From contig CP074575.1 of NCBI GenBank assembly GCA_018394315.1, positions 1,768,615 to 1,832,614 on the forward strand: a stretch of DNA of 64,000 nucleotides, read 5' to 3'. Shown here one piece after another: positions 25,949 through 64,000 of this stretch. The stretch's first letter is position 1; every line of letters begins with the position of its first letter. The notes beneath the pieces are model-generated. The model saw only the letters and a list, made by a program, of their open reading frames with translations, searched no databases and was not told the DNA's origin. Both the position numbers and the translations under genes were made by a program. Source of the stretch: Mycoplasmatota bacterium. Lineage in GTDB: Bacteria; Bacillota_I; Bacilli_A; MAG-NZ.

Positions 25949-27298
25949 TTATTTACCCTCCCCAAAATTATATAATTTATTTTGAAATTCATTTCTAAAC
26001 TTATCTAATCCTGATAATACAGGATTAGGAGCTGATTGACCTAAACCACAGAAAGCTGAATTAATCATATAATATGATAAATCTTCTAGTTGTATTAAAT
26101 CTTTATCTGTACCCATTCCTGATTCTATCTTCTTAAGAAGTTCGTATATTCTAACAGTACCCTCTCTACAAGGTGTACATCTACCACATGATTCTTTCAT
26201 GTTAAATTTCATGAATGAGCGACAAAGACTAACAATATCATTTGATTCGTCTAAAACGATTAAGCCTCCTGCTCCCATTTGAACACCATTCTTAGCTAAC
26301 GTGTCAAATCCTGTTCTTCTAAACAGTTCGTCTTTTTTTAAGAAACCACCACTAGGACCACTAAATAGAACAGCCTTAAAATCACTTCCATTTGCCATAC
26401 CACCAGCAACTTGCTCTAAAATTGTCTTAATTGGCATACCAGTTGGTAATTCATAGTATCCAGGTCTTTTTACCTTACCAGAGATTGTGTGAATTTTAGT
26501 ACCAGGAGTTTCAGGATTACCAATTTTATGATACCAATGTCCACCTTTTTGAATGATTTGAGGAACAATACATAGAGTTTCTACATTATTTACAACTGTT
26601 GGTTTTCCATACAATCCTTCAGTAACTGGGAAAGGTGGTTTGTTTCTAGGCTGACCTTTCATTCCTTCAATTGATTCAATTAATGCAGTTTCTTCCCCAC
26701 ATATATAAGCCCCTGCTCCGATTCTTAATTCAATATCAAATTTGAAATCGGTATTAAACAAAGGACTACCCAAAATTCCTAATTCATAAGCGTCTTTAAT
26801 AGCCTTTTCAAGAACAACTTTACATTTTGGATACTCAATTCTTAAATATATAAATCCTTTTGTCGCTCCGATAGCCATACCAGCAATTAACATTCCCTCA
26901 ATAACTGAGTGAGGATCGCTTTCCATAATGATTCTATCCATGTAATCCCCTGGAATACCTTCATCTGCATTCATGATAATGTATTTTTGATCAGCATTCG
27001 CATCGTGCGCGAACTGCCATTTTAGACCAGTAGGAAATCCAGCTCCTCCTCGTCCTCTAAGTCCTGATTTCTTCATCTCTTGAATTATATCAGTTTGTTT
27101 CATTTGACTTGCCTTTAAAGCGCCTAAGTAACCATCTCTAGCAATATACTCTTCTATTGATAATGGGTTAATTACACCTGCATTTCTAAGCTTGTCCCTA
27201 ATTTCTAAAGAATTTAATTCAATATTTTTATTGAATTTATCTCCTACTTCATTCAAAGTTTTCTCTTTGATTTTCATTAATTTAGCTAAAGTTATCAT
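25949..27298 (-). CDS. hydB: NADH/FMN-binding NuoF-like hydrogenase beta subunit (short form)
   Basis: GLRGRGGAGFPTG, NADEG, GAYICGEETAL, ESCGRCTPCREG, CGLGQ. Confidence 0.93.
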   Translation of the reverse strand: MITLAKLMKIKEKTLNEVGDKFNKNIELNSLEIRDKLRNAGVINPLSIEEYIARDGYLGALKASQMKQTDIIQEMKKSGLRGRGGAGFPTGLKWQFAHDANADQKYIIMNADEGIPGDYMDRIIMESDPHSVIEGMLIAGMAIGATKGFIYLRIEYPKCKVVLEKAIKDAYELGILGSPLFNTDFKFDIELRIGAGAYICGEETALIESIEGMKGQPRNKPPFPVTEGLYGKPTVVNNVETLCIVPQIIQKGGHWYHKIGNPETPGTKIHTISGKVKRPGYYELPTGMPIKTILEQVAGGMANGSDFKAVLFSGPSGGFLKKDELFRRTGFDTLAKNGVQMGAGGLIVLDESNDIVSLCRSFMKFNMKESCGRCTPCREGTVRIYELLKKIESGMGTDKDLIQLEDLSYYMINSAFCGLGQSAPNPVLSGLDKFRNEFQNKLYNFGEGK

Positions 27299-27662
27299 TT
27301 CAGATGCTCCTTTACAATTGAACCTAATTCAAAGACATCTACATTAGTATGTAGCTCATCATTAACTGTAATAGTTGGAGACTGATCACAGTGACCATTA
27401 CAATAAGTAACTTCTACAGATACTTTTCCATCTTCAGTAGTGTGTTCATCTTCTAGATTTAACTTGCTTTTAAGAACCTTAGTTAAGTCTTCAGAACCAT
27501 TTACTACACAACTTGCTCCCTCACAAATCCTAATGACAATATCACCCATTGGTTTTTCAGTAAAGTAATCATAAAATGTAGCAGTTGAGTTGACTTGTGA
27601 CATAGGGATCCCTAATTCCAATGAAATCAACTTGCTAGCAGCAAGTGGTATACACTTATAGA

Positions 27663-29169
27663 GGCTGTAAAATTAAGTTTGGGGTAAGAGAGTTATTCTC
27701 TTATTTCAAACTTTTTTAATGGAAACAAAAAAAGTGCATAATAATCCGATATAATTTAAGCGCTCAAACCTAATTAGAAAGGAAATTATTATGCACTCAA
27801 ATTCTATCACATTTAATAATGATATAAAATCTATTTTCAATATCCACGATAAATCTATAGTCCTAGATAACTATGAAATTATCGATGACTCAATAATCAT
27901 TCATCTTTCAAGGAATCGCCAATTAGTCAAATGTTCAGTCTGTGGAGAATTAACTGATAAGGTCCACGACTATTATATTCGCACTATTAATCATGGTGTT
28001 TTCAATAACCGTAAGTGTTTTATTAAATACAAGCAACGTAGATATCGTTGTGATTGTGGTAAGAGATTCTCTTTACCTAATCAATTTGTTGAGAAGTACA
28101 ATAAGATTAGTTCTAACTCTAAATGGAGTATCATTAACGAGGCTATACTTGTTTCTTCTTTCAAAGACATGGGGAAAAGACTTAATATGTCTTCTACCAC
28201 TGTAAGAAGAATATTTAATATGCATTGTAAACAATCTAGAAAGTCTTTACCTAGAGTATTAAGCATTGATGAATTCAAAGGTAATAGTGGTGGATACAAA
28301 TACAATCTAAGTATTTGTGATCCTTCTAATAGACAAATAATAGATATATTACCTTGTAGATATAAGGATTACTTACACCACTACTTTAGTACGTTTTCTT
28401 CTGAAGAACTAAGTAATGTAGAGGTTATTACTATGGATATGTATCATACTTACCACGATATTTGTAAGGAATTCTTTCCTAACGCTACTATAGTAATCGA
28501 TACTTTCCACTTTGTTAGACTAGTTACCAATGCAGCTAATAATGTAAGGATTAGAATTATGAAGAAGTTTAATCGAATTGATAAGCAATACAAAGTCCTC
28601 AAATCTAGATGGAGATTATTTAATACTAAACCAGATTGCATCTCGGATAAATGGATATTTGATAAAAGGAGTAAGCAATGGACAAGTGATTCATCATTAC
28701 TTGATTACATGAGAAACATTCATCCAGAGTTAGGTAAGACCAGAGAGTTACTAGAATCGTTTTATGAGATTGTTCATAACTCAAGCTATCCTACCGTTTA
28801 TCATGAGCTCAATAATTGGATCATTGAAGCGAAGAAAACTAACATTGGTGAAGTTAGAGAAGCAGCATTATCTATAGAAAGGTGGTTACCTGAGATAGTT
28901 AATTCGTTTATGATTAATCCTGATACTGAAACTAAATACACCTCAGCCTTTATTGAAGGTAGTAATAACTATATCAAAGTGATAAAACGTACTTCATATG
29001 GATTTAGATGTTTCAATACTTTTAGAAACAAAATACTTTATCATCACAATAATTCAAGACATATTATATCTGCATAGTTATGCACAAAAAAAGGACATAG
29101 ATTTTTTCAATCTATATCCTTAAACTCTTACTCATTTATTGAGTTTACCCCAATCCTTGACTTAGAGCC
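27663..29169 (+). mobile_element. ISL3-family insertion sequence, 1507 bp
   Basis: Ends GGCTGTAAAATT... / ...CTTAGAGCC; 8-bp TSD CTTATAGA at 27655-27662 and 29170-29177. Confidence 0.95.
27791..29077 (+). CDS. ISL3 transposase
   Basis: Zn ribbon, SIDEF, TMDMY, DTFHFV, EGSNNYIKVIKRTSYGFR. Confidence 0.95.
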   Translation: MHSNSITFNNDIKSIFNIHDKSIVLDNYEIIDDSIIIHLSRNRQLVKCSVCGELTDKVHDYYIRTINHGVFNNRKCFIKYKQRRYRCDCGKRFSLPNQFVEKYNKISSNSKWSIINEAILVSSFKDMGKRLNMSSTTVRRIFNMHCKQSRKSLPRVLSIDEFKGNSGGYKYNLSICDPSNRQIIDILPCRYKDYLHHYFSTFSSEELSNVEVITMDMYHTYHDICKEFFPNATIVIDTFHFVRLVTNAANNVRIRIMKKFNRIDKQYKVLKSRWRLFNTKPDCISDKWIFDKRSKQWTSDSSLLDYMRNIHPELGKTRELLESFYEIVHNSSYPTVYHELNNWIIEAKKTNIGEVREAALSIERWLPEIVNSFMINPDTETKYTSAFIEGSNNYIKVIKRTSYGFRCFNTFRNKILYHHNNSRHIISA

Positions 29170-29557
29170 CTTATAGATTCCATTGATCTCGTGTAGTATT
29201 TCAATAAGTGGTGTCTCATAAGCAGAATATTTCGCTACAATATCCCTTATTGCTTGTGCCTCTTTCTTTGACATTTTTACTAATCCCATTAAACCCCTCC
29301 TAATTTATCATAAAAAATATTTTCACAAGTAAATGACTACAATAAATTGTACTCGTACTCTTATGAAATTTCTTATTTATTTAACTAAAATCGTGCTGAT
29401 TAATCCATCCATAATTTGCATATTCAATATCGATTAAAGTATCAATCACCACGAAGTTTTTTATTTGTTTCCGTCTTAAAAATACTTAATTAGTAACGAG
29501 CCACGACCGAAAATCAATTTTTTTATATTTTTATCCACTATAAGTATCTACGCTGTC

Positions 29558-29585: not shown

Positions 29586-29850
29586 TGACAAATCGTCAAT
29601 TTTCTTAAAAATGGCTTTATTGTGCCACTTATACATTTATTATAGGTATCAAATGTTACCTTTAAAATGCAAAAATATATTTGAATAATCCTGGAAAAGT
29701 TTACGTTTAATGAATGAGACAAAGAGAAAGATAAGAATACTATATAAGTATAAAATTTTATCGATACAACATTAAATGGATGAAATTAGTTTAATTTTTT
29801 TAATTTATGTGTGATACGTCTAAAGCACCTAATATGATTTTGTGATAGAA

Positions 29851-35359: not shown

Positions 35360-35470
35360 ACTTTATTTTGATTGAAGCATTTATTTATCGTCTAATTTCT
35401 ATAATGGCAAAATCGATTATCATAAATATAATTACCAGATCTAGAATGCTCCAGATTTAAAAGGAGTGTT

Positions 35471-35626
35471 TCTAAAGAAAGAAAGTTTTTTAAAACTTTC
35501 TTCTATATAATATTTAGTTTTATTTTAATTTATTATTTTTTATATGTCCTTTGACTTGGGGCAGCAGAACCCATTTGTTGCTGAGCCATAGAAACCAATC
35601 TATCTGTAGCTCCATAAAAAGCCAAC
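35471..35626 (-). repeat. sspA 3'-end/terminator copy C with 50-bp att-like site 35577-35626
   Basis: Near-identical to 51304-51436. Confidence 0.95.
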
Positions 35627-35848
35627 TTCATACTTCCAATAATTGGTTTAATTCTATTCTAACACAAAGCTATAAGCTATACAAAATTATTAGTGTGCAC
35701 AAAAAGGTATACCAAGCATCTTGTTAATTCCTAAAAGAAAAACCTCTTTTATAATTTTCTACAAATAAGGGGTTAATCTTATTAATTATTAATACTCAGT
35801 ATCTAAAATTCTAAACTGTAGCATGATTTTAGGTCACTATACTATATT

Positions 35849-36171: not shown

Positions 36172-36585
36172 TTAATCTAACAATTCTACATCATAGCCTA
36201 TGATTTCAAGTAATTCTATTAATTCTTCTATTTCTTTATTGGTTTCATTTATTTTCAACGTTTGATTAGTTATATTAAACTCCAAATCTGATATACCTTC
36301 ACCTAAAAAGAAACTTCTTATTTCACTTTCAATATCTTCTTCAATTGGATTTAATATCTTCAATACTATTTGAGTATCCTTTGTTTTATAAGTTTTATCA
36401 ATTAAATATCCTGCTTTTTCTATTGCTTTATAAGCGTCTCTCACGCTAAGATCTCCTTCTTCAATCATGACAATATCATTAAGCATGTCAAATTTCACTA
36501 TTGAAAAGCCTGCAGAAATCAGCTCTGATTCGATCTTTAATCTACAATGCCCACATGCCATATTGACAACTTTTATTTCCTTCAT
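36172..36585 (-). CDS. Heavy-metal-associated (HMA) domain protein
   Basis: MACGHC motif; a second, Cys-less HMA-like domain follows. Confidence 0.8.
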   Translation of the reverse strand: MKEIKVVNMACGHCRLKIESELISAGFSIVKFDMLNDIVMIEEGDLSVRDAYKAIEKAGYLIDKTYKTKDTQIVLKILNPIEEDIESEIRSFFLGEGISDLEFNITNQTLKINETNKEIEELIELLEIIGYDVELLD

Positions 36586-36586
36586 T

Positions 36587-37138
36587 TTATCTCAACTCCA
36601 TTGTAGTAAGACAAGTTAGATCACCATCAAACGTAGAAATAGTTGAAGTACTGCTAAGCCCATTATAATTTACAGTAATAGTACCTTCTATTTCTCTAGG
36701 TAACCAAAGTTCAAAGAACCCATTTCTCAAACTTGTAACTTCGTTATTAAATATTTCTTTACCATAGCTATCTTTTACAATAACCTCAAATCTTTTCTCA
36801 ACCAGTTCAGCTCTACATCCTGTAGCACTATGGATTAGTCAGGTATGAGTAGTGTTTTCATATGGAGCAACAGCTACATAAAACATTTCTTCAGGCATTT
36901 CGTACTTCAGCTCAACAGAACCTGATCGTATGACTAGTTTGTCATCATATACTGAAGCACCCACATCCTTTATTGAAGTAGACATTTCTCCCAATTTGTA
37001 AATAATCTCCTCTATTGAAAGTTCCTCAATTCCTAGATTTTCTTTTAATTTTAACTCATCCGAAATTCCAGATTTAGTACATCCAGTTAATATTAGTACC
37101 AACACAAATATTATTACCAACTTCTTCACTTTAATCAC
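36587..37138 (-). CDS. cueP: CueP-family copper-binding lipoprotein with in-frame TGA (36839-36841); candidate selenoprotein, 183 aa
   Basis: LTGC lipobox; APYENTTHT*LIHSATGCRAEL...NGFFELWLPR...TCLTTMEL; frame stays open for 83 codons after the TGA. Confidence 0.85.
36809..36829 (-). promoter_or_regulatory. Candidate bacterial SECIS hairpin
   Basis: AGUGCUACA-GGA-UGUAGAGCU, G-led apical loop 18 nt after the UGA. Confidence 0.6.
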
Positions 37139-37153
37139 TACTTCCTATAGATT

Positions 37154-37345
37154 TTACTTATTAAAATTACTATTACTTTTGGATTTTTTCGTACATTCGG
37201 TATGCTTGCACATATCACAATCAATCTCAATTTCTATACCATCAGGAGCAGGGGTATTGTTATTAAGTAAATAAGAACCAATATATATTGCTACCATACC
37301 TAAAACAAATAAAACGACAATAAGATTTTGAATCATTGTCTTCAC
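37154..37345 (-). CDS. Small membrane protein with a Cys-rich tail
   Basis: One TM helix then CDMCKHTEC; AAGGAG RBS. Confidence 0.65.
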   Translation of the reverse strand: MKTMIQNLIVVLFVLGMVAIYIGSYLLNNNTPAPDGIEIEIDCDMCKHTECTKKSKSNSNFNK

Positions 37346-37378
37346 TCCTTTCTACTTTTGTTTATATTCTATTATATA

Positions 37379-37398
37379 AATATGAACAGAATATGAAT
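37379..37398 (-). promoter_or_regulatory. Direct repeat ATTCATATT-N2-GTTCATATT, candidate OmpR-family regulator box
   Basis: 11-bp-phased repeat next to TATAAT; a degenerate copy at 38160-38179. Confidence 0.55.
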
Positions 37399-37459
37399 TA
37401 TTAGATTGATATATTCTTCATAAGAAAAGGAGTGTCTATACACCCCTAAAATATATATA

Positions 37460-38119
37460 CTAGAATCCTCTAGAAGATCTGTAACTAGTATTTCTTCTAT
37501 AATTATTATATGAACCATGGCAACTACCGTAGAATCTACTATTAGATCCGTATCCATTCATAAATCCACCCATGTAATCGCCATATCCGTAATAGTCTAG
37601 TCCTAATTCATTAGCTTTGTCTTCAACTAAAGAATCAATAGTTTCGCGAGCGTTAATTGTTTCTTCTTCACTCATACTCGCCCAGTCATATGAGAACATC
37701 AAGTTGTGCATATAATACATTAACTCTGTCTGTTCATCTGAAGCGTAACCATACATCATTCCTGGTCGAAAACCAGCCCCAAAATCAGGTAAGTCTAATC
37801 CAAGTTCGATTGCTTTTTGATCTAAGAGTTGATTCATTTGAGATTGTGCTTCCCTGATTTCTTCAGCAGTCATTGCCGAGAAGTCATAAGCCTCAATTAA
37901 TTCAATCTGATAGTCCATGAATTGTTTCATTTCTTCATCAATAAATAATCTGTTCATACCTCCATGCATACCAAACCCACCATATTCTTGTGTTTCTTCA
38001 AATCCTAATTTTTGAGTCGCCATATGATAATAATCTTTTACTTGATTTTGTACACCATCATATGTTGCTGCAAATCCTCCAGTTAATAATGAAATAGATA
38101 ATAATAAACCTTTCATCAT
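37460..38119 (-). CDS. Secreted Met/Gly/Tyr-rich protein with two internal repeats
   Basis: Signal-like N-terminus; YDFSAMTAEE...KAIELGLD and YDWASMSEEE...KANELGLD. Confidence 0.7.
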   Translation of the reverse strand: MMKGLLLSISLLTGGFAATYDGVQNQVKDYYHMATQKLGFEETQEYGGFGMHGGMNRLFIDEEMKQFMDYQIELIEAYDFSAMTAEEIREAQSQMNQLLDQKAIELGLDLPDFGAGFRPGMMYGYASDEQTELMYYMHNLMFSYDWASMSEEETINARETIDSLVEDKANELGLDYYGYGDYMGGFMNGYGSNSRFYGSCHGSYNNYRRNTSYRSSRGF

Positions 38120-38361: not shown

Positions 38362-38748
38362 CTAATTGTTAACAATCTCCTCAATTTTCTCTTTACAACA
38401 TCCAAATTCAGAAACTCCGCAGTACTCTTCAATTTCTGAAACTGTAGTAGCTCCTTTTGAAATTGATTCTTCAATTTTAGCTTTACTAATGTTGTGACAA
38501 CAACATATGATTTCCTCAACTTCATTTTGACTAACAGTAAATCCTGCATCTTTTATAGTTTTTAAAATTATTTCCTCATTCTGACCGTTGAGTTCTACAT
38601 CAACAATTTTATCCTCTAAAGATATTTTATAACTTTCTATCCCTAAATCAATTAGCGCTTTTTCAATCTTTTCAGAACATGTTATACAGTTCATATCTTC
38701 TACTTTTACTTTCATTTTTGTATACTCCTTCTTATTGTAATTACTCAT
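38362..38748 (-). CDS. CopZ-like HMA domain fused to a BFD-like [2Fe-2S] domain
   Basis: MNCITC then ICCCHNIS...GATTVSEI..YCG...GCC. Confidence 0.75.
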   Translation of the reverse strand: MSNYNKKEYTKMKVKVEDMNCITCSEKIEKALIDLGIESYKISLEDKIVDVELNGQNEEIILKTIKDAGFTVSQNEVEEIICCCHNISKAKIEESISKGATTVSEIEEYCGVSEFGCCKEKIEEIVNN

Positions 38749-38755
38749 GTTACTT

Positions 38756-41224
38756 CTAATTTTCTGTTTTGAATCTCTTTAACCTTAATGCATTTAACAG
38801 TACAGAAATAGAACTGAAACTCATTGCTGCTGCAGCAAACATTGGATTTAACTTAGGCCCACCAAATGCAAAGAATAGACCAGCTGCTAGAGGTATTCCC
38901 GCAGAGTTATATGCAAATGCCCAAAATAAATTTTGTTTAATGTTTTTAATAGTGCTTTTACTAAGATGAAGAGCTGTTACAACGTCTAGTAAATCGCTTC
39001 TCATTAAAACTATATCGGCAGATTCCATGGCTACATCTGTTCCAGAACCTATTGCTATTCCTACATCTGCTTGAGCTAAAGCAGGAGCATCATTAATACC
39101 ATCACCAACCATAGCTACAGCCTTACCTAAGTCTTGAAGTTTCTTAACTTCATTCGCTTTATCTTCAGGTAATACTTCCGCTAAAACTCTATCAATTCCA
39201 ACACTTTCAGCAATAGCTGCTGCTGTACGTTTATTATCACCAGTAATCATCGTAACTTCAATACCTAACTGGTGTAATCTCTTTATAGCTCGAATACTAC
39301 TTACTTTTACAACATCAGCAACAGCAATGACACCTAATACCTGTTTCTCAGTAGAAACAAACATTGGAGTTTTACCTTCTTTAGCTAAGCGTTCAGAATC
39401 TTTCTTAAGAGATGTTATCTCAATATCTCTATCTCTCATCAATTTCTCGTTTCCAAGCAAGTAACTTTTCTTATTAACTTCTACTTCTATACCATGCCCT
39501 GGTATTGCATTAAATTTCTCAATTTGATATAAGTCAATATTTTTATTTGCTGCACCTCTCACAATAGCCTCACCTAGAGGATGTTCCGAGCTCTTTTCTG
39601 CAGATGCAGCTATCTTTAACAACTTTGTTTCGTCAAATTCATCTACAGTTATAATGTCTGTTAATTCTGGACGACCTTCAGTTATAGTCCCTGTTTTATC
39701 AAATACAATGGTATCTATTTTATGTGCAGTTTCTAACGCCACTCCACTTTTAATTAATACACCATTTTCTGCTCCTTTACCAGTTCCAACCATAATTGCA
39801 GTTGGAGTAGCAAGTCCCAGTGCACACGGACAAGCGATGACAAGAACCGATATGAAAATTGTCAGCGAAAAGACAACAGTGCTTCCAGTTATATACCAAG
39901 CAAATCCTGATATAATAGCAATTAAAAGTACTATTGGAACAAAATAACCACTAATAACATCTGCTAACTTAGCAATTGGTGCTTTAGATCCTTGTGCATC
40001 TTCCACAAGTTTTATAATCTGAGCAAGCGTAGTATCTTTACCCACTTTAGTAGCTTTGAACTGAATTGAACCAGTTTTGTTTATACTTGCACCAATAACA
40101 TGGTCACCAACATTCTTTTCAACCGGTATACTTTCCCCTGTAATCATTGCTACATCTACAGCAGTATTGCCTTTAGTAACTATCCCATCAACAGGAATCT
40201 TTTGACCTGGTTTAACAAGAACTATATCACCTTCTATTACATCGTCAATAGATACTTCTATCTCATTCCCATCCCTTATAATAGTAGCAGTCTTAGGGGC
40301 TAGACCCATCAATTTTTTTATCGCATCTGAAGTCTTCCCTTTAGCAATAGACTCTAAGTATTTTCCGAGTAATATTAACGTGATAATTACTCCTGCTGTT
40401 TCGAAGTATAAATCGCTTGCGTAAGCAATTCTCACTTCATAAGTTCCAGTTATAATCTTATATATAGCGAATAATCCATAAAGAATCGCTGCTCCAGTAC
40501 CTAAAGCAATTAAAGAGTCCATATTAGGTGAACGTTTCATTAATGTCTTAACGCCGACTACATAGAACTTATTACCAGCTATTATAACTGGTATTGTAAG
40601 CAATAATTGTACTAAGGCAAAATTAAGACTATGCTCCATAGGATCTAGAATACTAGGAATTGGTAGTTTCATCATATGTCCCATAGCTAAATAGAGTAAA
40701 GGAACTGTAAAAATCGCAGAAACTATAAATTTCTTCCACAATTTCTTCATCTCTAAACTCTTTCTTATTTTCTCCTCTTCATTACTATCGCTCTTAGATG
40801 AATCTAGTGGATTATAACCCGACTTTATTATAGAATCTCTCAACAATTTTTCAGTCACAACAGAGCCATCATATTTAATGTTAGCTGTTTCTGTTGCGAA
40901 ATTAACAGTAGCATTGATAACTCCATCAACATTACTTAGGTCTCTTTCGACAGTATTAACACAGGTTGCACATGTCATTCCTTCAATTTTTATAATAATG
41001 TTCTTAGATGCAACATCATCTTTAGCAATATATCCCGCTTTAGATACTGCTTGAATAATTTCATCATTATCTAAAATATCATTGTTATATTTCACGCTCA
41101 TTTTTTCTGTAGTTAAGTTAACTGAAACCTCTTTTACTCCATCTAGTTTAGATACTGCTTTTTCTACAGAACTAGCACAACTAGCACAAGTCATTCCACT
41201 CACTTTATATTTCTTAGTCTCCAT
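38756..41224 (-). CDS. copA: Cu(I)-exporting P1B-type ATPase
   Basis: Two GMTCxxC domains, CPC, DKTGT, HP, GDGIND, YN and MxxSS motifs. Confidence 0.97.
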   Translation of the reverse strand: METKKYKVSGMTCASCASSVEKAVSKLDGVKEVSVNLTTEKMSVKYNNDILDNDEIIQAVSKAGYIAKDDVASKNIIIKIEGMTCATCVNTVERDLSNVDGVINATVNFATETANIKYDGSVVTEKLLRDSIIKSGYNPLDSSKSDSNEEEKIRKSLEMKKLWKKFIVSAIFTVPLLYLAMGHMMKLPIPSILDPMEHSLNFALVQLLLTIPVIIAGNKFYVVGVKTLMKRSPNMDSLIALGTGAAILYGLFAIYKIITGTYEVRIAYASDLYFETAGVIITLILLGKYLESIAKGKTSDAIKKLMGLAPKTATIIRDGNEIEVSIDDVIEGDIVLVKPGQKIPVDGIVTKGNTAVDVAMITGESIPVEKNVGDHVIGASINKTGSIQFKATKVGKDTTLAQIIKLVEDAQGSKAPIAKLADVISGYFVPIVLLIAIISGFAWYITGSTVVFSLTIFISVLVIACPCALGLATPTAIMVGTGKGAENGVLIKSGVALETAHKIDTIVFDKTGTITEGRPELTDIITVDEFDETKLLKIAASAEKSSEHPLGEAIVRGAANKNIDLYQIEKFNAIPGHGIEVEVNKKSYLLGNEKLMRDRDIEITSLKKDSERLAKEGKTPMFVSTEKQVLGVIAVADVVKVSSIRAIKRLHQLGIEVTMITGDNKRTAAAIAESVGIDRVLAEVLPEDKANEVKKLQDLGKAVAMVGDGINDAPALAQADVGIAIGSGTDVAMESADIVLMRSDLLDVVTALHLSKSTIKNIKQNLFWAFAYNSAGIPLAAGLFFAFGGPKLNPMFAAAAMSFSSISVLLNALRLKRFKTEN

Positions 41225-41646: not shown

Positions 41647-41808
41647 TTATTCACTTTGTACTTGTCTTATGTGTTTATAATCATCTATTGATATTTCATC
41701 TCTAGCAAGTCTTTCATTTAATATTTCAGAAGCACTTTTCAAAGATGGTTTATCTTTATAACCCGTATAAACAAATACTAACAAAATCAAGAACAGAATA
41801 ATCCTCAT
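41647..41808 (-). CDS. Small TM+SHOCT protein, 53 aa (absent from the ORF track)
   Basis: MRIILFLILLVFVY...SASEILNERLARDEISIDDY. Confidence 0.75.
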   Translation of the reverse strand: MRIILFLILLVFVYTGYKDKPSLKSASEILNERLARDEISIDDYKHIRQVQSE

Positions 41809-41810
41809 TT

Positions 41811-42152
41811 CTATCTTCCCCTTTCAATCTCAGATTTAATTCTATTATATTCTTCTATCGTAATATCTCCATTTGCTAGTCTATTGTCTAAGATTTTTTG
41901 AGCACTAACGTCTTTCTTTTCCACTTGGAAAATTAATCTGTAGATAAATGCTACTACAAAATAGATAATTACCCAACAAACTACTATCCAAATCATCCCA
42001 AATGGCCAATAACTACCACCATAATGTCCCATCATGTGGCCACCATAATAGTAATCACCTCTTAATACATTATTTGATTGATAATTGAGAAACCAAATAC
42101 CACCAAGTATCAACACTAATATAACTATAGTAAATATAACTATTTTTTTCAT
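41811..42152 (-). CDS. SHOCT-domain membrane protein with a His/Met-rich loop
   Basis: GGHMMGHYGG; AQKILDNRLANGDITIEEY. Confidence 0.8.
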   Translation of the reverse strand: MKKIVIFTIVILVLILGGIWFLNYQSNNVLRGDYYYGGHMMGHYGGSYWPFGMIWIVVCWVIIYFVVAFIYRLIFQVEKKDVSAQKILDNRLANGDITIEEYNRIKSEIERGR

Positions 42153-42199
42153 CTTATCTCCTCCTACATTAATCTTATAAAATAACTATGAATAGATTA

Positions 42200-43465
42200 T
42201 TATTTAAACTCATTAAGGAATATTTTGAATTCTGTTCCAACTCCCTCTTTACTTAATACTTCAAGCTTTCCCCCTAAATCCAGTACAAGCAAGTTGACAA
42301 TATAAAGACCTAATCCAGATCCTTTTTTATGTAAATCAGTAGCACTTTCAACTCTATAATCCTTTTTAAATATATTTTTTAAGTGTTTATCTTGAATACC
42401 AATGCCTTTATCCTTTACAGAGAATATAATCATTTCACTCCTCTTGAGTGAGACCTCAACATAACTACTGGTTTTAGAATAGTAATAGCTATTTGATAGT
42501 AAATTGTAGATGATTCTAGAAACAGATTCCCTTTCACCTGTTATCATAATCCCTTCTTCTACATCTACCGATAAGTTGATATCTTTTGTATCAAAAACGT
42601 TTAGAAATCGCTCACAATGCTCTACTATCATTTCTGATAAATTAATTTCCTCCAAGATATACTCACTCTCGCAACTATTGACTGACTCAATTAGATTATT
42701 TAGTGTTGCAACTTCCTCTTTTAGTATTGTTAGAACGTCACCATTAATTTTAAGTCTATTAGATTCAACTCCTTCTAAATAACTCAATAATATTGTTAAG
42801 GGCGTCTTCATATCGTGTGTGATTGTTTGAAGCTCTTTTGTTCTAGATATCTTTAGTTTCGCATAATCATTGGTTATCCTATCAACTTCATTGTAAATTT
42901 CATGGAAATCTTGAAAATGAAATTCCTTATCTATAGTATCACTTTTGTTTATTTTCAATTTAAGTTTACTCATATCTTTCAAAACCTTATTAACCCTGAT
43001 CGAGATGTAATTATAATAGAAAATAAGACTTGCTATATAAACTACCAAGATAAAAAGATTAGTTACTAATAAAAATGTATTATTTAATAACGTATTTACC
43101 GAATAGGTACTGTCAATCAATACCTTACCCACTATTTCATCCTCTATATTTAGTGTGTATGATTTATAGTTACTTCCTATCAATTCAGTTTCATATAATA
43201 AGGAATCATTATAGAAGTACTTGATTGATGTGTTGTGAATATGTGAGTAGTGCTCGATGTATTCATTAACAGAATCTTTTCCATTATCTCTTATCATATG
43301 TTCCACTACCGAAGCAAAAGCTATTTCCTTTTGTACAGTTGAATGGTTTTCATAGTTGTTATTAAACAAAAATATTCCTATATTCATAATAAAGAAAATC
43401 AATGTAAACATTATACTTAGTTTTAGTACAAAATCTCTCTTGAAAAATCTTTTAAAGTCATTCAT
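42200..43465 (-). CDS. Sensor histidine kinase
   Basis: THDMKTPL, NLLSNS, DKGIGI, GSGLGL. Confidence 0.93.
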   Translation of the reverse strand: MNDFKRFFKRDFVLKLSIMFTLIFFIMNIGIFLFNNNYENHSTVQKEIAFASVVEHMIRDNGKDSVNEYIEHYSHIHNTSIKYFYNDSLLYETELIGSNYKSYTLNIEDEIVGKVLIDSTYSVNTLLNNTFLLVTNLFILVVYIASLIFYYNYISIRVNKVLKDMSKLKLKINKSDTIDKEFHFQDFHEIYNEVDRITNDYAKLKISRTKELQTITHDMKTPLTILLSYLEGVESNRLKINGDVLTILKEEVATLNNLIESVNSCESEYILEEINLSEMIVEHCERFLNVFDTKDINLSVDVEEGIMITGERESVSRIIYNLLSNSYYYSKTSSYVEVSLKRSEMIIFSVKDKGIGIQDKHLKNIFKKDYRVESATDLHKKGSGLGLYIVNLLVLDLGGKLEVLSKEGVGTEFKIFLNEFK

Positions 43466-44156
43466 CTAAATTACCTATAAACTTATATCCTAAACCATAG
43501 ATAGTCTTGATGAAAGAAGGATTCTTAATATCATCCTTTATTTTCTTTCTTATATTTTTAATATAGACATCAATAACTCTATCAAAGACATCTGAACCAT
43601 TGCCAAAACAATATTCCAACAATTGATCTCGAGTGAATATTTGAAAAGGATTTGAAGCTAGGTGTAATAGCACTCTATATTCATTACTCGTAAGTTCCAT
43701 ATCAGTATCACCTACTTTTATTATGTTGTTTTTAAGTGAAATTAATAATTTACCTCTGTTAAATGAAAGTATGTTTTTAACATTTTTGTTTCTCTTCTTA
43801 AGGAAATTTTTAATTTTTAGAAGTAGCTCATCACAGGAGAATGGCTTTACTATATAGTCATCTGCACCGATCTTCAATCCATATAATTTATCATCTATAT
43901 TAGTTTTAGCCGTTAATATAATAATATGGACATCTGAATTAACTCTTATCCTTTTAATCATTTCTTCACCTGATAATCCAGGAAGCATTAAATCAGATAT
44001 TACAATATCAATATCATAATTATTGAAAATTTCTAACCCTTCTTCCGCGCTAAGTGCTGAATAAACACTGTATCCTTCCTGCCCACAGTAAAGTGATATT
44101 AGGTTGTTGATTTTTTGGTTATCTTCGACTATCAAAATATTATTCAAATTTAACAC
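43458..44156 (-). CDS. OmpR-family response regulator
   Basis: IVED, DLMLPG, GADDYIVKPF, winged-helix IKTIYGLGY. Confidence 0.95.
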   Translation of the reverse strand: MLNLNNILIVEDNQKINNLISLYCGQEGYSVYSALSAEEGLEIFNNYDIDIVISDLMLPGLSGEEMIKRIRVNSDVHIIILTAKTNIDDKLYGLKIGADDYIVKPFSCDELLLKIKNFLKKRNKNVKNILSFNRGKLLISLKNNIIKVGDTDMELTSNEYRVLLHLASNPFQIFTRDQLLEYCFGNGSDVFDRVIDVYIKNIRKKIKDDIKNPSFIKTIYGLGYKFIGNLDE

Positions 44157-44336
44157 CTCTACTTATAATTAATATAACCACTAATTATATGGGAAATGTG
44201 TTGTTTGAATATTATATAAAAAAAATACTGAGTATCAGTAGTTAATGTTTGTTATTTCCTATATATAATAACTCAAACGTATAGTCAAAATTTATGTGAG
44301 TTGAAGTGGTTTCTTAATATTGGAGTGGATTTTGAT

Positions 44337-44492
44337 TCTAAAGAAAGAAAGTTTTTTAAAACTTTCTTCTATATAATATTTAGTTTTATTTTAATTTATT
44401 ATTTTTTATATATCCCTTGACTTGGGGCAGCAGAACCCATTTGTTGCTGAGCCATAGAAACCAATCTATCTGTAGCTTCATAAACCACCAAC
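44337..44492 (-). repeat. sspA 3'-end/terminator copy B with 50-bp att-like site 44443-44492
   Basis: Near-identical to 51304-51436. Confidence 0.95.
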
Positions 44493-44682
44493 TTTTGACA
44501 ACTTATTACAAAGATTTACATGTACTGATTCAAAGTCCTCTTTTACTAGCTATTACCGAAAAATCAGATAGAATGTCCACTTCAAGATGTTAATTAATCC
44601 TTTGTAATTATTAGATAAAAGGACAAGATTTCAACAAACCTAGTCTTTTTATCTAGTCCTTAACTTACAGCTTAAATAATAA

Positions 44683-47037
44683 CTAATCATTTCTTATTTC
44701 TAAGTTTGGATGGTAATAGGAAATATTATAGTTAGCTATTCCATTTCCTCTATTAATCTTAAAAAATTCTAATATATAATCCTTGTCCTTATCATCATAC
44801 GAGTGTTCTTGTGTTTTATTTGTAATAAACTGACCCGTTCCACCCAACTCATAATATATGTCAATTATATTGAACCACTTCTCAGGCATATCACGTCCAA
44901 TTAAGCCTATTAATAAATCTCTTTCTTCTTCTGTGAACGTGTCATACCCCCAAAGAGGATCATTAGTGTCTAGCATTCCAAGATGGAATAATTTAGGTAA
45001 ATCACCATATGTTTTACTATCAAATTCAGAACCAAATAAGTATTCATGATTAGCTATTCCTACAGGATAAATCAGTTCAGACCCTTGATAATTATCACTT
45101 GGTAAAATTGGATGATGAATTCCTCCAACATAAACAGCTTTGAATTCTTCCGGATAAATTGATGATAATCTATTTGCAAATGCTCCTCCTGTTGAAAATC
45201 CACCAATAAATACTTTCTCCTCAAGGTCAAATCCAGCTTCACTTAGTCTTTCCTTCGCATCATCTAGTATATTCATCATCTGGACCTCATAGTTTTTGAG
45301 TAACTCAAGGTCTTCTCGAGTATATATAGAACCCTTACTAATTTCCATATTTTCAAATTCATCTTCCAAGTACATAGTAGTACTATCTAAGTCTTGTGGC
45401 TTTATAACTTCAGTTACTTCACTTGTGATGTTTCTAACATCAGGTCGTGGAGTTATTGGCATTACTCTTGGGACATGAAGTTCATCAGAAACATAATACA
45501 TTACTCTCCAATTTTCATGTAGCGACTCATAAGCCTCAATAATAGTTTCTATGAAATTGTCATTAGACTTAGGGTTATTAGTTTCAAATATTAGATATGA
45601 TAAGTCATTACTATTTATTAATTGATTATTGGATGTTGGTAGTTGTATAAAATATGGATAATTAAAACCTTTATCTGGATTAGCAGGTATAAATACAATT
45701 TTACCATAATCCGTATTTTTGAAACTTGTTCCAAGTTCTATAATCTCCCTCATTTCTCTCTCTTGCCATGAAAGAATCTCTGAAATATCAGCTATCCCTG
45801 ATATTTCAGATGTAAATAAATCATCTGGTAATACTTCAAACATCTTGATTAAGTTTGACTCACTACTAGCGTTAAGTATAATAATATGCTTTCCATCATA
45901 ATTTCTTGACAAGTATTGATTTTCTTCAAGTCTTGAAGCTTCTGGAATCAATTCTTTTATATACAATGGGAAATCTTGATTCGGAATATTTAAAACAATT
46001 ATTTGACTGGCGTAGTCTATTTCATTTTGAGTCACATTCTGATTTGATTGTTTACTACAATTATCAAATTGATAAAAATCTATCATTCTATTTACAGATT
46101 CTCTTTGTCCAATAATCAAATTATCCTTTAAATCATCTTCATTATAGAATTCCATTTCGGGATCAGATGGAGGAGTAATAATTTCATGTACGTCTTTCAC
46201 AATTTCAATACGTGACAATTTATTATTTGGAGGTGCAATAACACCTTCTTTGTCAGTATATATTGTATATACGTCAACATTCATCGGGTTAATTGGACTA
46301 AATACATTAGTTTCCCTAAATAAATTATCTATATATGCCCTATAATCAGATTCACCAGTATTAACATATAATACTAACTGTTCTCCATCTACTATTAAGT
46401 TGTATCCATTTTTCAATTCAAAAAAAACTGGAATTCTCCTCTCAAGAAGAATATACCAATCCCACCATGCTGGATTACTAAAATGATAATTCCCGTCTAA
46501 CAAAATTGAGTGAACTTGATCTCCTCTTTCTATTTCTTCATTTTCAACAAACTCTCGAACATTCTTCATACTTGCCAACCAGTATGGTAAGTCTATCCCT
46601 AGCGTATGATGTACGTGCCTTTGTAAGTAATTTAGTGCATCTTCATCTCCGGCAACGAAAAAATTATCATCGACGAAATATTCGTCTACAATTATTTTTA
46701 ATTCTTCATAAGATATTTGGTAACCTTCTTTTAAAGAATTAATGACATCAGTGAGTTGAATTACTTCCTCTTTTTTTTCTGTTGAGACATCAGAATCATC
46801 TTCTCGAGTGTTGCCCTCTGTATCAATTACATCGACAATCTCACTTGGAACATTATCTCCAGTTCCATCATCTGTTGTAATTTTTTCAGTAGTCTCACCA
46901 GAATCACTTTCTGCTAAAGTTTCTTCTTGTTCAATAATTCCCGCTACCTCACCAATTCCAGCAGTGTTATCTGTACATCCAATCAACATAAAAACTATTA
47001 AGAGTATCATTACTTTTTTCCACATAAGTACCTCCAT
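44683..47037 (-). CDS. Large acidic lipoprotein with a C-terminal alpha/beta-hydrolase-like domain
   Basis: LIGC lipobox, acidic linker, GGFSTGG nucleophile elbow, candidate Asp (DTND) and His (QEHSY). Confidence 0.65.
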   Translation of the reverse strand: MEVLMWKKVMILLIVFMLIGCTDNTAGIGEVAGIIEQEETLAESDSGETTEKITTDDGTGDNVPSEIVDVIDTEGNTREDDSDVSTEKKEEVIQLTDVINSLKEGYQISYEELKIIVDEYFVDDNFFVAGDEDALNYLQRHVHHTLGIDLPYWLASMKNVREFVENEEIERGDQVHSILLDGNYHFSNPAWWDWYILLERRIPVFFELKNGYNLIVDGEQLVLYVNTGESDYRAYIDNLFRETNVFSPINPMNVDVYTIYTDKEGVIAPPNNKLSRIEIVKDVHEIITPPSDPEMEFYNEDDLKDNLIIGQRESVNRMIDFYQFDNCSKQSNQNVTQNEIDYASQIIVLNIPNQDFPLYIKELIPEASRLEENQYLSRNYDGKHIIILNASSESNLIKMFEVLPDDLFTSEISGIADISEILSWQEREMREIIELGTSFKNTDYGKIVFIPANPDKGFNYPYFIQLPTSNNQLINSNDLSYLIFETNNPKSNDNFIETIIEAYESLHENWRVMYYVSDELHVPRVMPITPRPDVRNITSEVTEVIKPQDLDSTTMYLEDEFENMEISKGSIYTREDLELLKNYEVQMMNILDDAKERLSEAGFDLEEKVFIGGFSTGGAFANRLSSIYPEEFKAVYVGGIHHPILPSDNYQGSELIYPVGIANHEYLFGSEFDSKTYGDLPKLFHLGMLDTNDPLWGYDTFTEEERDLLIGLIGRDMPEKWFNIIDIYYELGGTGQFITNKTQEHSYDDKDKDYILEFFKINRGNGIANYNISYYHPNLEIRND

Positions 47038-47454: not shown

Positions 47455-47660
47455 TATAATCATTTCATATTTCTAGGTTTGGATGGTAATATGATATATT
47501 ATAGTTAGCTACTCCATCTCCTATATTAACCTTAAAAAATTATAATATATATATATATTCCATACCGTCTTGATCATAAAAATATTTTTGTGTCTTATCA
47601 TACCCCCAACGAGGATCATTAGTGTCCAACATTCCAAGATGGAATAATTTAGATAAATTA
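47455..47660 (-). pseudogene. Degenerate duplicate of the 3' end of the 784-aa lipoprotein gene
   Basis: Matches ~44685-44820 and ~44943-45003 with the middle deleted; followed by the same R4 terminator. Confidence 0.8.
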
Positions 47661-51366: not shown

Positions 51367-51588
51367 TTATTTTTTATATGTCCCTTGACTTGGGGCAGCA
51401 GAACCCATTTGTTGTTGAGCCATTGAAACCAATCTACGAGTTATTTCTCCACCAACTGACCCGTTTTGTCTAGCCGTACTGTCAGGTCCTAATGTTACAC
51501 CAAGTTCACTGGCAATCTCGTATTTCATTTGATCGATTGCAGCCTGTGCTCCTGGAACTACTAATTTATTATAAGAGTTTTGAGCCAT
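51367..51588 (-). CDS. sspA: Alpha/beta-type small acid-soluble spore protein
   Basis: [25 protein letters not shown]...[15 protein letters not shown]; downstream of thiI as in Bacillus; GGAGGTG RBS. Confidence 0.95.
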
Positions 51589-54299: not shown

Positions 54300-55805
54300 G
54301 GCTCTAAGTCAAGGATTGGGGTAAACTCAATAAAAGAGTAAGAGCTCAAAGGATGTAGATTGAAAAATCTATGTCCTTTTTTTGTGCATAACTATGCAGA
54401 TACAACGTGTCTTGAATTATTGTGATGATAAAGGATCTTGTTTCTAAAGGTATTGAAACATCTGAACCCGTATGAAGTACGTTTAATCACTTTGATATAG
54501 TTGTTAGATCCTTCTATAAAAGAACTAGTATATTTAGTATTCGTATCAGGATTAATCATAAATGAATTGACTATTTCAGGTAACCATCGTTCAATTGATA
54601 ATGCTGCTTCTCTATATTCACCAATGTTAGATTTTTTAGATTCAATTATCCAACTAGAGATTTTAGAATAAACATCAGGATAAGTAGAGCTATGAACAAT
54701 CTCATAAAATGATTCTAGTAGTTCCCTAGCTGTAGCTAACTCTGGATGGATGTTTCTCATATAATCTAGTAAGTAAGAATCGCTAGTCCATTGTTTAGTT
54801 CTTTTGTCAAACTTCCAATCATTAGAGATGTTTTCCGGCTTTGTATTAAATAATCTCCACCTAGACTTGAGAACTTTATATTCTTTATCAGTACGATTAA
54901 ATTTCTTCATAATCCGTATTCTTATCTTTTTAGCTGCATTGGTGACTAGTCTCACAAAATGGAATGTATCAATAACTATAGTAGCGTTAGGGAAGAACTC
55001 CTTACAAATATCATAGTAAGTATGATACATATCCATAGTAATAACCTCTACATTATTAAGTTCTTCAGAACTAAACTTACTAAAGTAATGATGTAAATAA
55101 TCCTTATACCTACATGGTAATATGTCGATTATCTTTCTGTTCGACGGATCACATAGAGATAGATTATACTTATATCCACCACTATTACCTTTGAATTCGT
55201 CAATGCTTAATACTCTAGGTAAAGACTTTCTAGATTGTTTACAATACATATTAAATATTCTTCTTACAGTGGTAGAAGACATATTAAGTCTTTTCCCCAT
55301 GTCTTTGAAAGAAGAAACAAGTATAGCTTCTTTAATAACACTCCATTTAGAGTTAGTACTTATCTTATTGTACTTCTCTACGAATTGATTAGGTAAAGAG
55401 AACCTCTTACCACAATCACAACGATATCTACGTTGTTTGTATCTAATAAAACACTTACGGTTATTGAAAACACCGTGATTAATAGTTCGAGTATAGTAGT
55501 CATGAACTTTATCAGTTAGCTCTCCGCATACAGGACATTTAGATAACTGACGCTCTCTGGATAAGTTAATTATAATTTCATCTCCTACATGTTCATAACC
55601 ATCAATGTGAATATTTTGATCATCAATGTTGAATAGTGATTTCAAATCTTCATTAAATGTGATAAAATTTCTTTGCATAATACACCTCTTTTAATTGGGT
55701 TTCGTCGCTTTAATTATAACGTGTTATTATGCACTTTTTTTATTTCCGCTAAAAAAGTTTGAAATAAGAGAATAACTCTCTTACCCCAAACTTAATTTTA
55801 CAGCC
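54300..55805 (-). mobile_element. ISL3-family insertion sequence, 1506 bp (isoform of 27663-29169)
   Basis: Same ends; 8-bp TSD AGTAAAAT at 54292-54299 and 55806-55813. Confidence 0.95.
54392..55678 (-). CDS. ISL3 transposase
   Basis: 428 aa, colinear with 27791-29077. Confidence 0.95.
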   Translation of the reverse strand: MQRNFITFNEDLKSLFNIDDQNIHIDGYEHVGDEIIINLSRERQLSKCPVCGELTDKVHDYYTRTINHGVFNNRKCFIRYKQRRYRCDCGKRFSLPNQFVEKYNKISTNSKWSVIKEAILVSSFKDMGKRLNMSSTTVRRIFNMYCKQSRKSLPRVLSIDEFKGNSGGYKYNLSLCDPSNRKIIDILPCRYKDYLHHYFSKFSSEELNNVEVITMDMYHTYYDICKEFFPNATIVIDTFHFVRLVTNAAKKIRIRIMKKFNRTDKEYKVLKSRWRLFNTKPENISNDWKFDKRTKQWTSDSYLLDYMRNIHPELATARELLESFYEIVHSSTYPDVYSKISSWIIESKKSNIGEYREAALSIERWLPEIVNSFMINPDTNTKYTSSFIEGSNNYIKVIKRTSYGFRCFNTFRNKILYHHNNSRHVVSA

Positions 55806-63576: not shown

Positions 63577-64000
63577 TTACTTTACTAGCTCACTTACTCT
63601 AAAACCATTTGTATAAACATTCATTTTTTTACTCCTTGCAAAGCCAATTAGTGTGATTCCATATTTTTCAGCAAGCCTTATTGCTAATGACGTAGGAGCA
63701 CTTCTCGAAATTAACACAGGAATTTTAGCAAGTAAACACTTTAGTACCATATCACTTGATAATCTACCACTTACAACTAATAGGCCATTTGTGTAAATAT
63801 TATTATTTAATAAATGCCCAATGATTTTATCTACAGCGTTGTGCCTTCCAATGTCTTCTTTAAAGATGATTTTATCACCAATTTTATAAATTGCAGAATG
63901 TACTCCACCTGTTGCTTTAAATAACTCGCTTTCCTGAGCTAAATATTTTGTTAACCAATAAACTACTTCCGGATGAACTTTTGAATCGTTTTCTAACATG
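63577..64000 (-). CDS. fdhD: Formate dehydrogenase accessory sulfurtransferase, 3' part (runs off window)
   Basis: TGGVHSA, EDIGRHNAVDK, SGRLS, SAPTSLA, LIGFAR. Confidence 0.92.
   Translation of the reverse strand, partial: MLENDSKVHPEVVYWLTKYLAQESELFKATGGVHSAIYKIGDKIIFKEDIGRHNAVDKIIGHLLNNNIYTNGLLVVSGRLSSDMVLKCLLAKIPVLISRSAPTSLAIRLAEKYGITLIGFARSKKMNVYTNGFRVSELVK

Follow-up and report, generated by a model that had tools for sequence, protein, structure and literature searches.

A predicted selenocysteine-containing CueP lipoprotein encoded in a copper gene cluster of a Mycoplasmatota bacterium

The cueP gene and its genomic surroundings

Within the analyzed window, a 64,000-nucleotide stretch of a Mycoplasmatota bacterium genome (G000), a gene of the CueP family was located whose reading frame is interrupted by an in-frame TGA at codon 100 (Table 1). 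The frame continues beyond the TGA for 83 codons up to a TAA at positions 36589-36587 and, after a gap of a single base, the next gene starts with its ATG at 36585. The read-through sequence comprises the stretches TH-T-*-LI-HS-ATGCRAEL, NGFFELWLPR and TCLTTMEL (the asterisk denotes the TGA), and coordinates as well as motifs of the extension are as claimed in the earlier note on this DNA. A plus-strand reading of 36587..37138 was rejected, since this frame is closed.

Translated with U read as C, the 183-residue product matched the Pfam CueP profile PF21172 with 135.5 bits (cut-off 27; profile positions 2-137 of 138) and the NCBIfam model NF038094 with 145.2 bits (cut-off 60). Scored separately, the two halves covered the adjacent profile positions 2-55 and 59-137, and the TGA therefore interrupts a single domain; the intact CueP C-terminal half that had been proposed to follow the TGA corresponds to the second of these matches. 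The Salmonella-type model NF038095 was not reached by the window CueP (126.5 bits versus a cut-off of 195), and a Neobacillus CueP homolog scored 139.3 bits on the same model (cut-off 195). The N-terminal hydrophobic stretch ends in L-T-G-C, which we take to be a lipobox, and a lipobox was also found by regular expression in 113 of the 130 TGA loci with at least 85 residues upstream. The window CueP is thus predicted to be a lipoprotein anchored at the outer face of the membrane.

Table 1. Features of the cueP locus and further genes referred to in the text. Positions are those of the window unless a contig (C1) of genome G000 is given.
Feature	Position	Strand	Remarks
cueP	36587..37138	minus	183 aa with TGA as Sec; start GTG 37138 or GTG 37126
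Lipoprotein signal peptide (predicted)	37079..37138	minus	hydrophobic stretch ending in lipobox L-T-G-C, Cys20; by eye
Proposed Sec codon TGA	36839..36841	minus	codon 100; equivalent of Salmonella CueP Cys96 by 4GQZ alignment
Putative metal/redox site H98, U100, H103, C108, C176	36611..36847	minus	= Salmonella His94, Cys96, His99, Cys104, Cys172
SECIS-like hairpin AGUGCUACA-GGA-UGUAGAGCU	36809..36829	minus	GGA loop 36820-36818, 18 nt after UGA
HMA-domain (CopZ-like) gene	36172..36585	minus	starts one base past cueP TAA
Two upstream genes without Pfam match	37154..38119	minus	63 aa with CDMCKH; 219 aa, exported-looking, Gly/Met/His-rich
HMA + BFD-like [2Fe-2S] protein	38362..38748	minus	Pfam
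Copper-translocating P1B-type ATPase, two HMA domains	38756..41224	minus	TIGR01511, 621 bits vs cut-off 397
SHOCT-domain membrane protein, similar 53-aa protein without Pfam match, histidine kinase, response regulator	41647..44156	minus	cluster head
Left direct repeat of copper module	35467..35628		duplicated ssp 3' end + downstream DNA
Right direct repeat of copper module	44333..44494		96% identical to left repeat
fdhD	63577-63999		window edge; C-terminal part of 443-codon ORF
GrdA/GrdB selenoprotein sets	C1:227987 and 231327; C1:1616683 and 1617850-1618293

The neighbors of cueP on the same strand are genes encoding the response regulator, the histidine kinase, the copper ATPase and the HMA/BFD-like protein upstream and the CopZ-like protein downstream. 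This copper block spans 8.9 kb and is flanked by 162-nt direct repeats, which copy the 3' end of an alpha/beta SASP gene (ssp) present in intact form at 51367-51588. In total, five such ssp-end repeats (at 29830, 30547, 35467, 44333 and 51301) were observed, splitting the region from 29 to 51 kb into gene modules; in the whole G000 genome they occur in this window only. An integrase was not identified among the scanned window ORFs. The mobile copper island described earlier is supported only in part, by the enclosure of the cluster between two 96%-identical ssp-end duplications. Judged from the repeats, the arrangement looks like tandem islands integrated at an ssp hotspot.

Further traces of rearrangement were noted in this part of the window. 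Two ISL3 transposase genes (27791-29077 and 54392-55678), inverted relative to each other and 84% alike, bracket the module region, and the first copy is located where a nuoE-like gene begins; this gene (27295-27630; fragment at 29128-29289) belongs to an [FeFe] hydrogenase operon. Moreover, stretches of a gene encoding a 784-aa exported protein recur directly upstream of it with 91-93% identity (44683-47037 and 47457-47658), probably as a decayed duplicate.

Decoding of the in-frame TGA

The only PDB sequence match of the read-through product was Salmonella CueP (4GQZ, E 3e-27), and the TGA column coincides with the Cys of the Salmonella motif THPCFNH, i.e., Cys96 in the published numbering (PMC3935622). 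In a 92-row alignment, from which W-bearing and truncated sequences were excluded and in which U was read as C, positions H98, C100, H103 and C176 were invariant and C108 was nearly so. The earlier placement of the TGA at a conserved Cys of CueP thus agrees with both the alignment to Cys96 and the family column. An AlphaFold model of the read-through product (pLDDT 93.5) was superposed on 4GQZ with an rmsd of 1.5 A, TM scores of 0.80/0.91 and 36% identity, and the three 4GQZ chains were the only structure matches in the PDB at E <= 0.001.

A search of G000 (one contig, 2.17 Mb, 31% GC, 93.6% complete by markers) for selA, selB, selC and selD, as proposed in the earlier note, recovered all four genes side by side: the tRNA-Sec gene at C1:712683-712779 is followed by selD, selA and selB (cluster C1:712683-717055). 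The deduced SelD, SelA and SelB proteins each scored above the curated cut-off, and selD has a TGA of its own. Selenoproteins of known families encoded in G000 are SelD and two GrdA/GrdB sets; both GrdA contain a TGA, and the two GrdB profile matches end at a TGA followed by G-T-C. The presence of fdhD had been read as a hint of a Sec-type formate dehydrogenase. This sign did not hold, since the adjoining enzyme (C1 about 1833500-1836200) is a Cys form (ARLCH) in which an in-frame TGA is absent. The N-terminal half of the fdhD ORF resembles, by eye, a MobA-type nucleotidyltransferase.

Alternatively, the UGA could be decoded as Trp (genetic code 4) or Cys, or could be a programmed stop yielding a 99-aa product. 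Database proteins with W at the CueP column (10/154 and 8/120) and database records of 91-99 aa ending at the TGA are in line with such readings. For one of the W-bearing proteins, P0002, the corresponding DNA locus (L229) has TGA, which points to the genetic code applied by the gene caller. Moreover, G000 encodes the release factor gene prfB and a single Trp tRNA with anticodon CCA, and TGA ends 140 of its 1146 ORFs of at least 250 codons; genetic code 4 was rejected for G000 in view of prfB and the TGA gene ends. The homologs carry Cys rather than Trp at the column, TGA-CueP without selA was not found among complete genomes, which speaks against insertion of another residue, and a 99-aa product would miss four of the five site residues. 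Based on these findings, the decoding alternatives are considered very improbable.

Conservation of the TGA was analyzed in several genome sets. Among 101 relatives, CueP was found in 14, with TGA at the column in 7 matches from 6 genomes and TGT in 8 matches from 8 genomes. Five of the 6 TGA-CueP relatives encode SelA above the cut-off (the sixth is 55% complete and has no selA match), versus 1 of the 8 Cys-CueP relatives. A sample of 400 genomes of the phylum contained CueP matches in 30 genomes and added no new TGA genome. The closest CueP homolog among named records was that of an 'uncultured Mollicutes bacterium' (L061). According to a 2022 review, Mollicutes appeared to be without Sec (PMC9312934); in the present data, selA was above the cut-off in 11 of the 101 relatives and the Sec system of G000 is complete.

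A GTDB locus search with the window protein returned no locus, and a search with the DNA pattern P-[YF]-x3-T-H-x-TGA-x2-H-x3-G-[CU] was successful, yielding at least 119 loci. At least 113 of these were CueP (>50 bits) according to a profile built from the matches in the 101 relatives and the 400-genome phylum sample, and 6 were chance matches. Of the TGA loci, one ends at a contig edge, one stops after 27 codons and the rest continue for 82-88 codons; likewise, all 34 TGA loci detected in metagenomes read on for 82-93 codons. Among the matches listed, TGA loci originated mostly from Neobacillus, Mesobacillus, Cytobacillus, Robertmurraya, Salipaludibacillus, Halalkalibacter and kin, and Mollicutes, Erysipelotrichia and Bacilli MAG records with TGA cueP were also represented. 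Most of the loci are from Bacillaceae, and several families are represented. In searches of plasmid records (22 and 23 records), distant CueP matches only were found, in genera outside the TGA set. Both TGA and Cys codons were thus encountered at the homologous column, and instead of missing Sec machinery together with TGY in all close homologs, the combination named by the earlier note as contradicting a Sec assignment, the machinery is present and many homologs have TGA.

Co-occurrence with selA was evaluated for the Bacillaceae family of genome G432 (251 genomes). CueP was present in 132 and selA (E <= 1e-60) in 228 of these genomes, i.e., Sec use is nearly universal in this family; three of the 23 selA-less genomes were identified by elimination, and two partial CueP matches were left out. 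TGA-CueP occurred in 109 selA-positive genomes and in none lacking selA, versus 11 selA-positive and 10 selA-negative genomes with the open/Cys form only (Fisher p 1e-9, a value that overstates independence, as the genomes are related). In all 16 inspected loci of this sample the TGA was at the exact site, and the remaining TGA-CueP genomes were counted by a single TGA in the tabulated match. Since 11 selA-positive genomes have Cys-only CueP, Sec is dispensable in this protein.

A recent nonsense mutation or a sequencing error in a pseudogene would be a further explanation of the TGA, to which the IS elements and gene fragments close by could point. It is contradicted by the identical TGA and the open downstream frame in more than 100 genomes from several families and is regarded as having a negligible chance of being correct.

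In a CueP tree of 238 de-duplicated rows, computed with the site masked and with W scored as Sec, Sec and Cys forms were interleaved with 17 parsimony changes at weak support, which suggests several Sec-Cys exchanges within the family. As the tree is poorly resolved, the order of these events was not inferred.

The earlier note had furthermore described a SECIS-like hairpin behind the TGA. Published criteria for bacterial SECIS elements are a loop of 3-9 nt whose first two positions contain G, a spacing of 16-37 nt, a stem of 4-16 bp and an MFE of <= -7.5 (PMC13188914). The window element falls within these ranges, the energy value being reached by stretches of 39-60 nt and not by the bare hairpin: the 21-nt hairpin by itself has -4.9 kcal/mol and a 50-60 nt stretch -9.5 kcal/mol. 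With its 3-nt G-led loop, 18-nt spacing and short stem, it is also similar to the bacterial SECIS consensus (PMC13188914, Fig. 2A). The stem contains one G.A mismatch, unlike the homologs, which mostly carry a perfect 7-bp stem, and folding energy was no better than that of shuffled sequences (z -0.2 to -1.3). No Rfam match was obtained within window positions 26000-56000.

Comparison of homologs was more informative. The five inner pairs were complete in 100 of 101 distinct TGA sites versus 3 of 37 distinct Cys sites, the mean energy of the region from +9 to +38 was -8.0 versus -3.4 kcal/mol, respectively, and the loop was GGN in all 101 distinct TGA sites. Within the one Bacillaceae family, all seven pairs were formed in 16/16 TGA loci versus 1/13 Cys loci, a comparison from which L196 was left out because it was dropped by the regular expression. 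For covariation, each hairpin variant was represented by a single row (25 rows); pairing was seen in 96.6% of the cells, and four of the seven pairs change on both sides, counts that overstate independence because the source genomes are related. The covariation value of 0.395 was reached by none of 500 shuffles, slid controls remained at or below 0.16, and two of the five measures, namely pair types and pairs changed on both sides, were not above shuffles. Furthermore, in all 94 TGA sites encoding L-[TA]-G-C-Q, Leu TTG occurs with Gln CAA (80 sites) and CTG with CAG (14 sites). This pairing is silent in the protein, and protein constraint is therefore no explanation, but the pattern may reflect few events. 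Poor fits among TGA loci were L020 (3/5 inner pairs) and L245 (2/7 pairs in the standard register). The hairpin with its G-led loop 18 nt downstream is thus in place as described, and folding energy gave no support for it; its support is homolog conservation and covariation, not the window sequence alone.

Some Cys-codon cueP genes (L189, L183, L179 and L043) have all or most of the hairpin, which is complete in L189 and L043. Three of them lie nested within Sec forms in the tree, which suggests that Sec recently reverted to Cys in these genes. A genome-wide scan of G000 for perfect stems retained 33 of 3293 TGA sites, including selD, both grdB genes and a gene adjacent to selC. The cueP site fell below the cut-off because of its G.A mismatch; as cueP and grdA were missed, the scan is unusable as a detector. 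The geometry seen in cueP recurs in both grdB genes of G000, whose hairpins present a 3-nt GGN loop at +18.

Because of the Sec machinery, the conserved TGA at the Cys column in many genomes, the co-occurrence with selA and the covarying hairpin, the candidate Sec-containing CueP with SECIS put forward in the earlier note is very likely real and, judged from these comparisons, the window CueP is almost certainly a selenoprotein.

Proposed role of Sec-CueP in copper defense

For CueP of Salmonella enterica Typhimurium, a putative copper site comprising His94, Cys96, His99, Cys104 and Cys172 was described; Cu(II) induces a Cys96-Cys104 disulfide in this protein, coupled to copper reduction, and single site mutants, C96S included, each lose protection against Fenton chemistry (PMC3935622). 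The window CueP is like the Salmonella protein in its modelled fold, in the five-residue site in register, in its predicted export and in copper context. However, the latter is a soluble periplasmic protein with Cys96, whereas the window gene features a proposed Sec codon with SECIS and a predicted lipoprotein signal. CueP of Corynebacterium diphtheriae, also a monoderm, is presumed to be attached on the outside of the membrane, with a Dsb-type protein keeping it in the reduced state; it was described with cysteine (PMC4546943), in contrast to the Sec codon of the window gene.

Based on these data, SelB would recognize the hairpin 18 nt past the UGA, Sec would be inserted at codon 100, and a 183-aa lipoprotein would result in which Sec stands for Salmonella Cys96 within a His-Sec-His-Cys-Cys site. 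Selenolate, two His and two Cys residues would then bind Cu(I) exiting the neighboring P1B-ATPase; copper is presumed to be the metal bound. Alternatively, Cu(II) might be reduced while U100 and C108 become joined by an Se-S bond, which would correspond to the disulfide that copper induces between Cys96 and Cys104. The outcome would be less copper-driven damage at the cell surface. Compared to a thiolate, a selenolate is a softer and more fully ionized ligand that is harder to over-oxidize, and these properties would suit an exposed copper site. A probability of roughly 0.8 is assigned to this explanation as a whole, i.e., that Sec-CueP represents a surface lipoprotein trapping Cu(I) or reducing Cu(II) next to the copper ATPase; the role in copper sequestration or reduction, taken by itself, is considered probable.

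The selenoprotein could instead function as a copper-delivery chaperone loading an extracellular cuproprotein, since a role towards the client SodCII was reported for Salmonella CueP (PMC3935622) and all five site residues are kept in the window CueP. However, a Cu,Zn-SOD (PF00080) was not found in the single, 93.6% complete contig of G000. Moreover, [FeFe] hydrogenases, Rnf-like genes and glycine-reductase-type genes were detected in this genome and suggest an anaerobic host, which argues against SOD delivery. A delivery function is therefore considered unlikely.

Sequestration or reduction of copper also has to be weighed against a selenoprotein whose target is an oxidant or a soft metal other than copper (Ag, Au or Hg), for which the copper cluster would be one setting among several. 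Bacillaceae neighborhoods vary in this respect: a copper ATPase was absent beside cueP at six inspected Bacillaceae loci and at L026, and several metal-type selenoproteins were linked to Hg and As in a 2026 review (PMC13188914). On the other hand, a heavy-metal P-type ATPase adjoins TGA cueP not only in G000 but also in L020, L022, L023 and L024, as judged from translations, and the characterized relative from Salmonella acts on copper (PMC3935622). A different target appears even less likely than copper delivery. Given the Bacillaceae loci lacking an adjoining copper ATPase, the evidence for copper comes from the family and from the lineages near G000. That Sec-CueP forms a widespread and so far undescribed selenoprotein family of hundreds of Bacillaceae and related lineages, with Sec as copper ligand or redox center and repeated Sec-Cys exchanges, is given a slightly better than even chance.

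If Sec-CueP is true, copper defense could be coupled to selenium supply: without selenium, translation halts at codon 100, just before the closely spaced CopZ-like gene, making a selenium-copper coupling possible. Sec-CueP would also offer a clean system for Sec function in an extracellular copper site, given the characterized Cys ortholog. The question why Sec is used in a copper site is directly testable, because a Cys counterpart with structure and mutants as well as natural Sec/Cys pairs in close relatives are available.

Annotation status and a second candidate selenoprotein

Characterized selenoproteins are mostly redox enzymes, and exported Sec metal ligands have so far mostly been predicted. 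Table 1 of a 2026 catalogue (PMC13188914) contains the predicted metal selenoproteins CopZ-like (2Fe-2S) forms 1 and 2, UxxU NF041115, the SO_0444 Cu/Zn efflux transporter, a P1B-ATPase and SaoB/SaoC/SaoX, none of which is in its experimentally verified block. They share with Sec-CueP the use of Sec as a proposed soft-metal ligand, and SaoB, SaoC and SaoX are extracytoplasmic, as is predicted for Sec-CueP; the families and motifs of all these proteins differ from the CueP motif H-x-U-x-x-H. Neither CueP nor this motif is among the 119 families of that table, which includes a 'GenBank annotated' class, nor is CueP mentioned in the catalogue's text (PMC13188914). Moreover, CueP is unmentioned in the BSepDB main text (PMC13326102), four deep-Sep supplements (PMC12013277), SelCysML (PMC13745706), the 2022 review (PMC9312934) and the main text of the Haft and Gwadz preprint, and full-text literature searches returned no publication on Sec-CueP recognizable by title or start of the abstract. 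The Sec variant of the CueP family is thus apparently uncatalogued in print. It would enlarge the bacterial selenoproteome by a family frequently encountered in culturable Bacillaceae (109/251 genomes of one family).

Regarding sequence databases, the GenBank records at five Bacillaceae loci end at the TGA (91-99 aa), and the named ones are mostly termed 'hypothetical protein'. The TGA-ended CueP records among the matches listed are all without a WP_ accession, as is compatible with RefSeq treating the gene either as a pseudogene or as encoding Sec. U-bearing CueP was not among the database proteins listed; the SelD control was likewise without a full-length NCBI-sourced record among 120 matches listed, and this collection thus does not discriminate between the two treatments. 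The name of NF038094 lacks the '(seleno)' tag, unlike that of NF041115, which is a weak hint. An existing annotation of Sec at CueP by RefSeq is considered possible but less likely than not.

In addition to cueP, a gene encoding a 221-aa lipoprotein immediately upstream of selC (L010:588-1253, plus strand; G000:C1:711912-712577) was recognized as a candidate selenoprotein gene. It encodes S-C-T-TGA-R, and a hairpin follows whose GGT loop lies at roughly +26. No Pfam family was assigned to its product, and NCBIfam matches were at the level of the signal peptide only. TGA was present in three selA-positive genomes (G000, G004 and G005) and Cys in nine homologs, eight of them in selA-less genomes. 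The tRNA-Sec gene shares the locus with this candidate in G000 and G004, and the lipoprotein may handle selenium uptake or delivery. The gene preceding the candidate in G000 resembles, by eye, a tandem-rhodanese lipoprotein gene.
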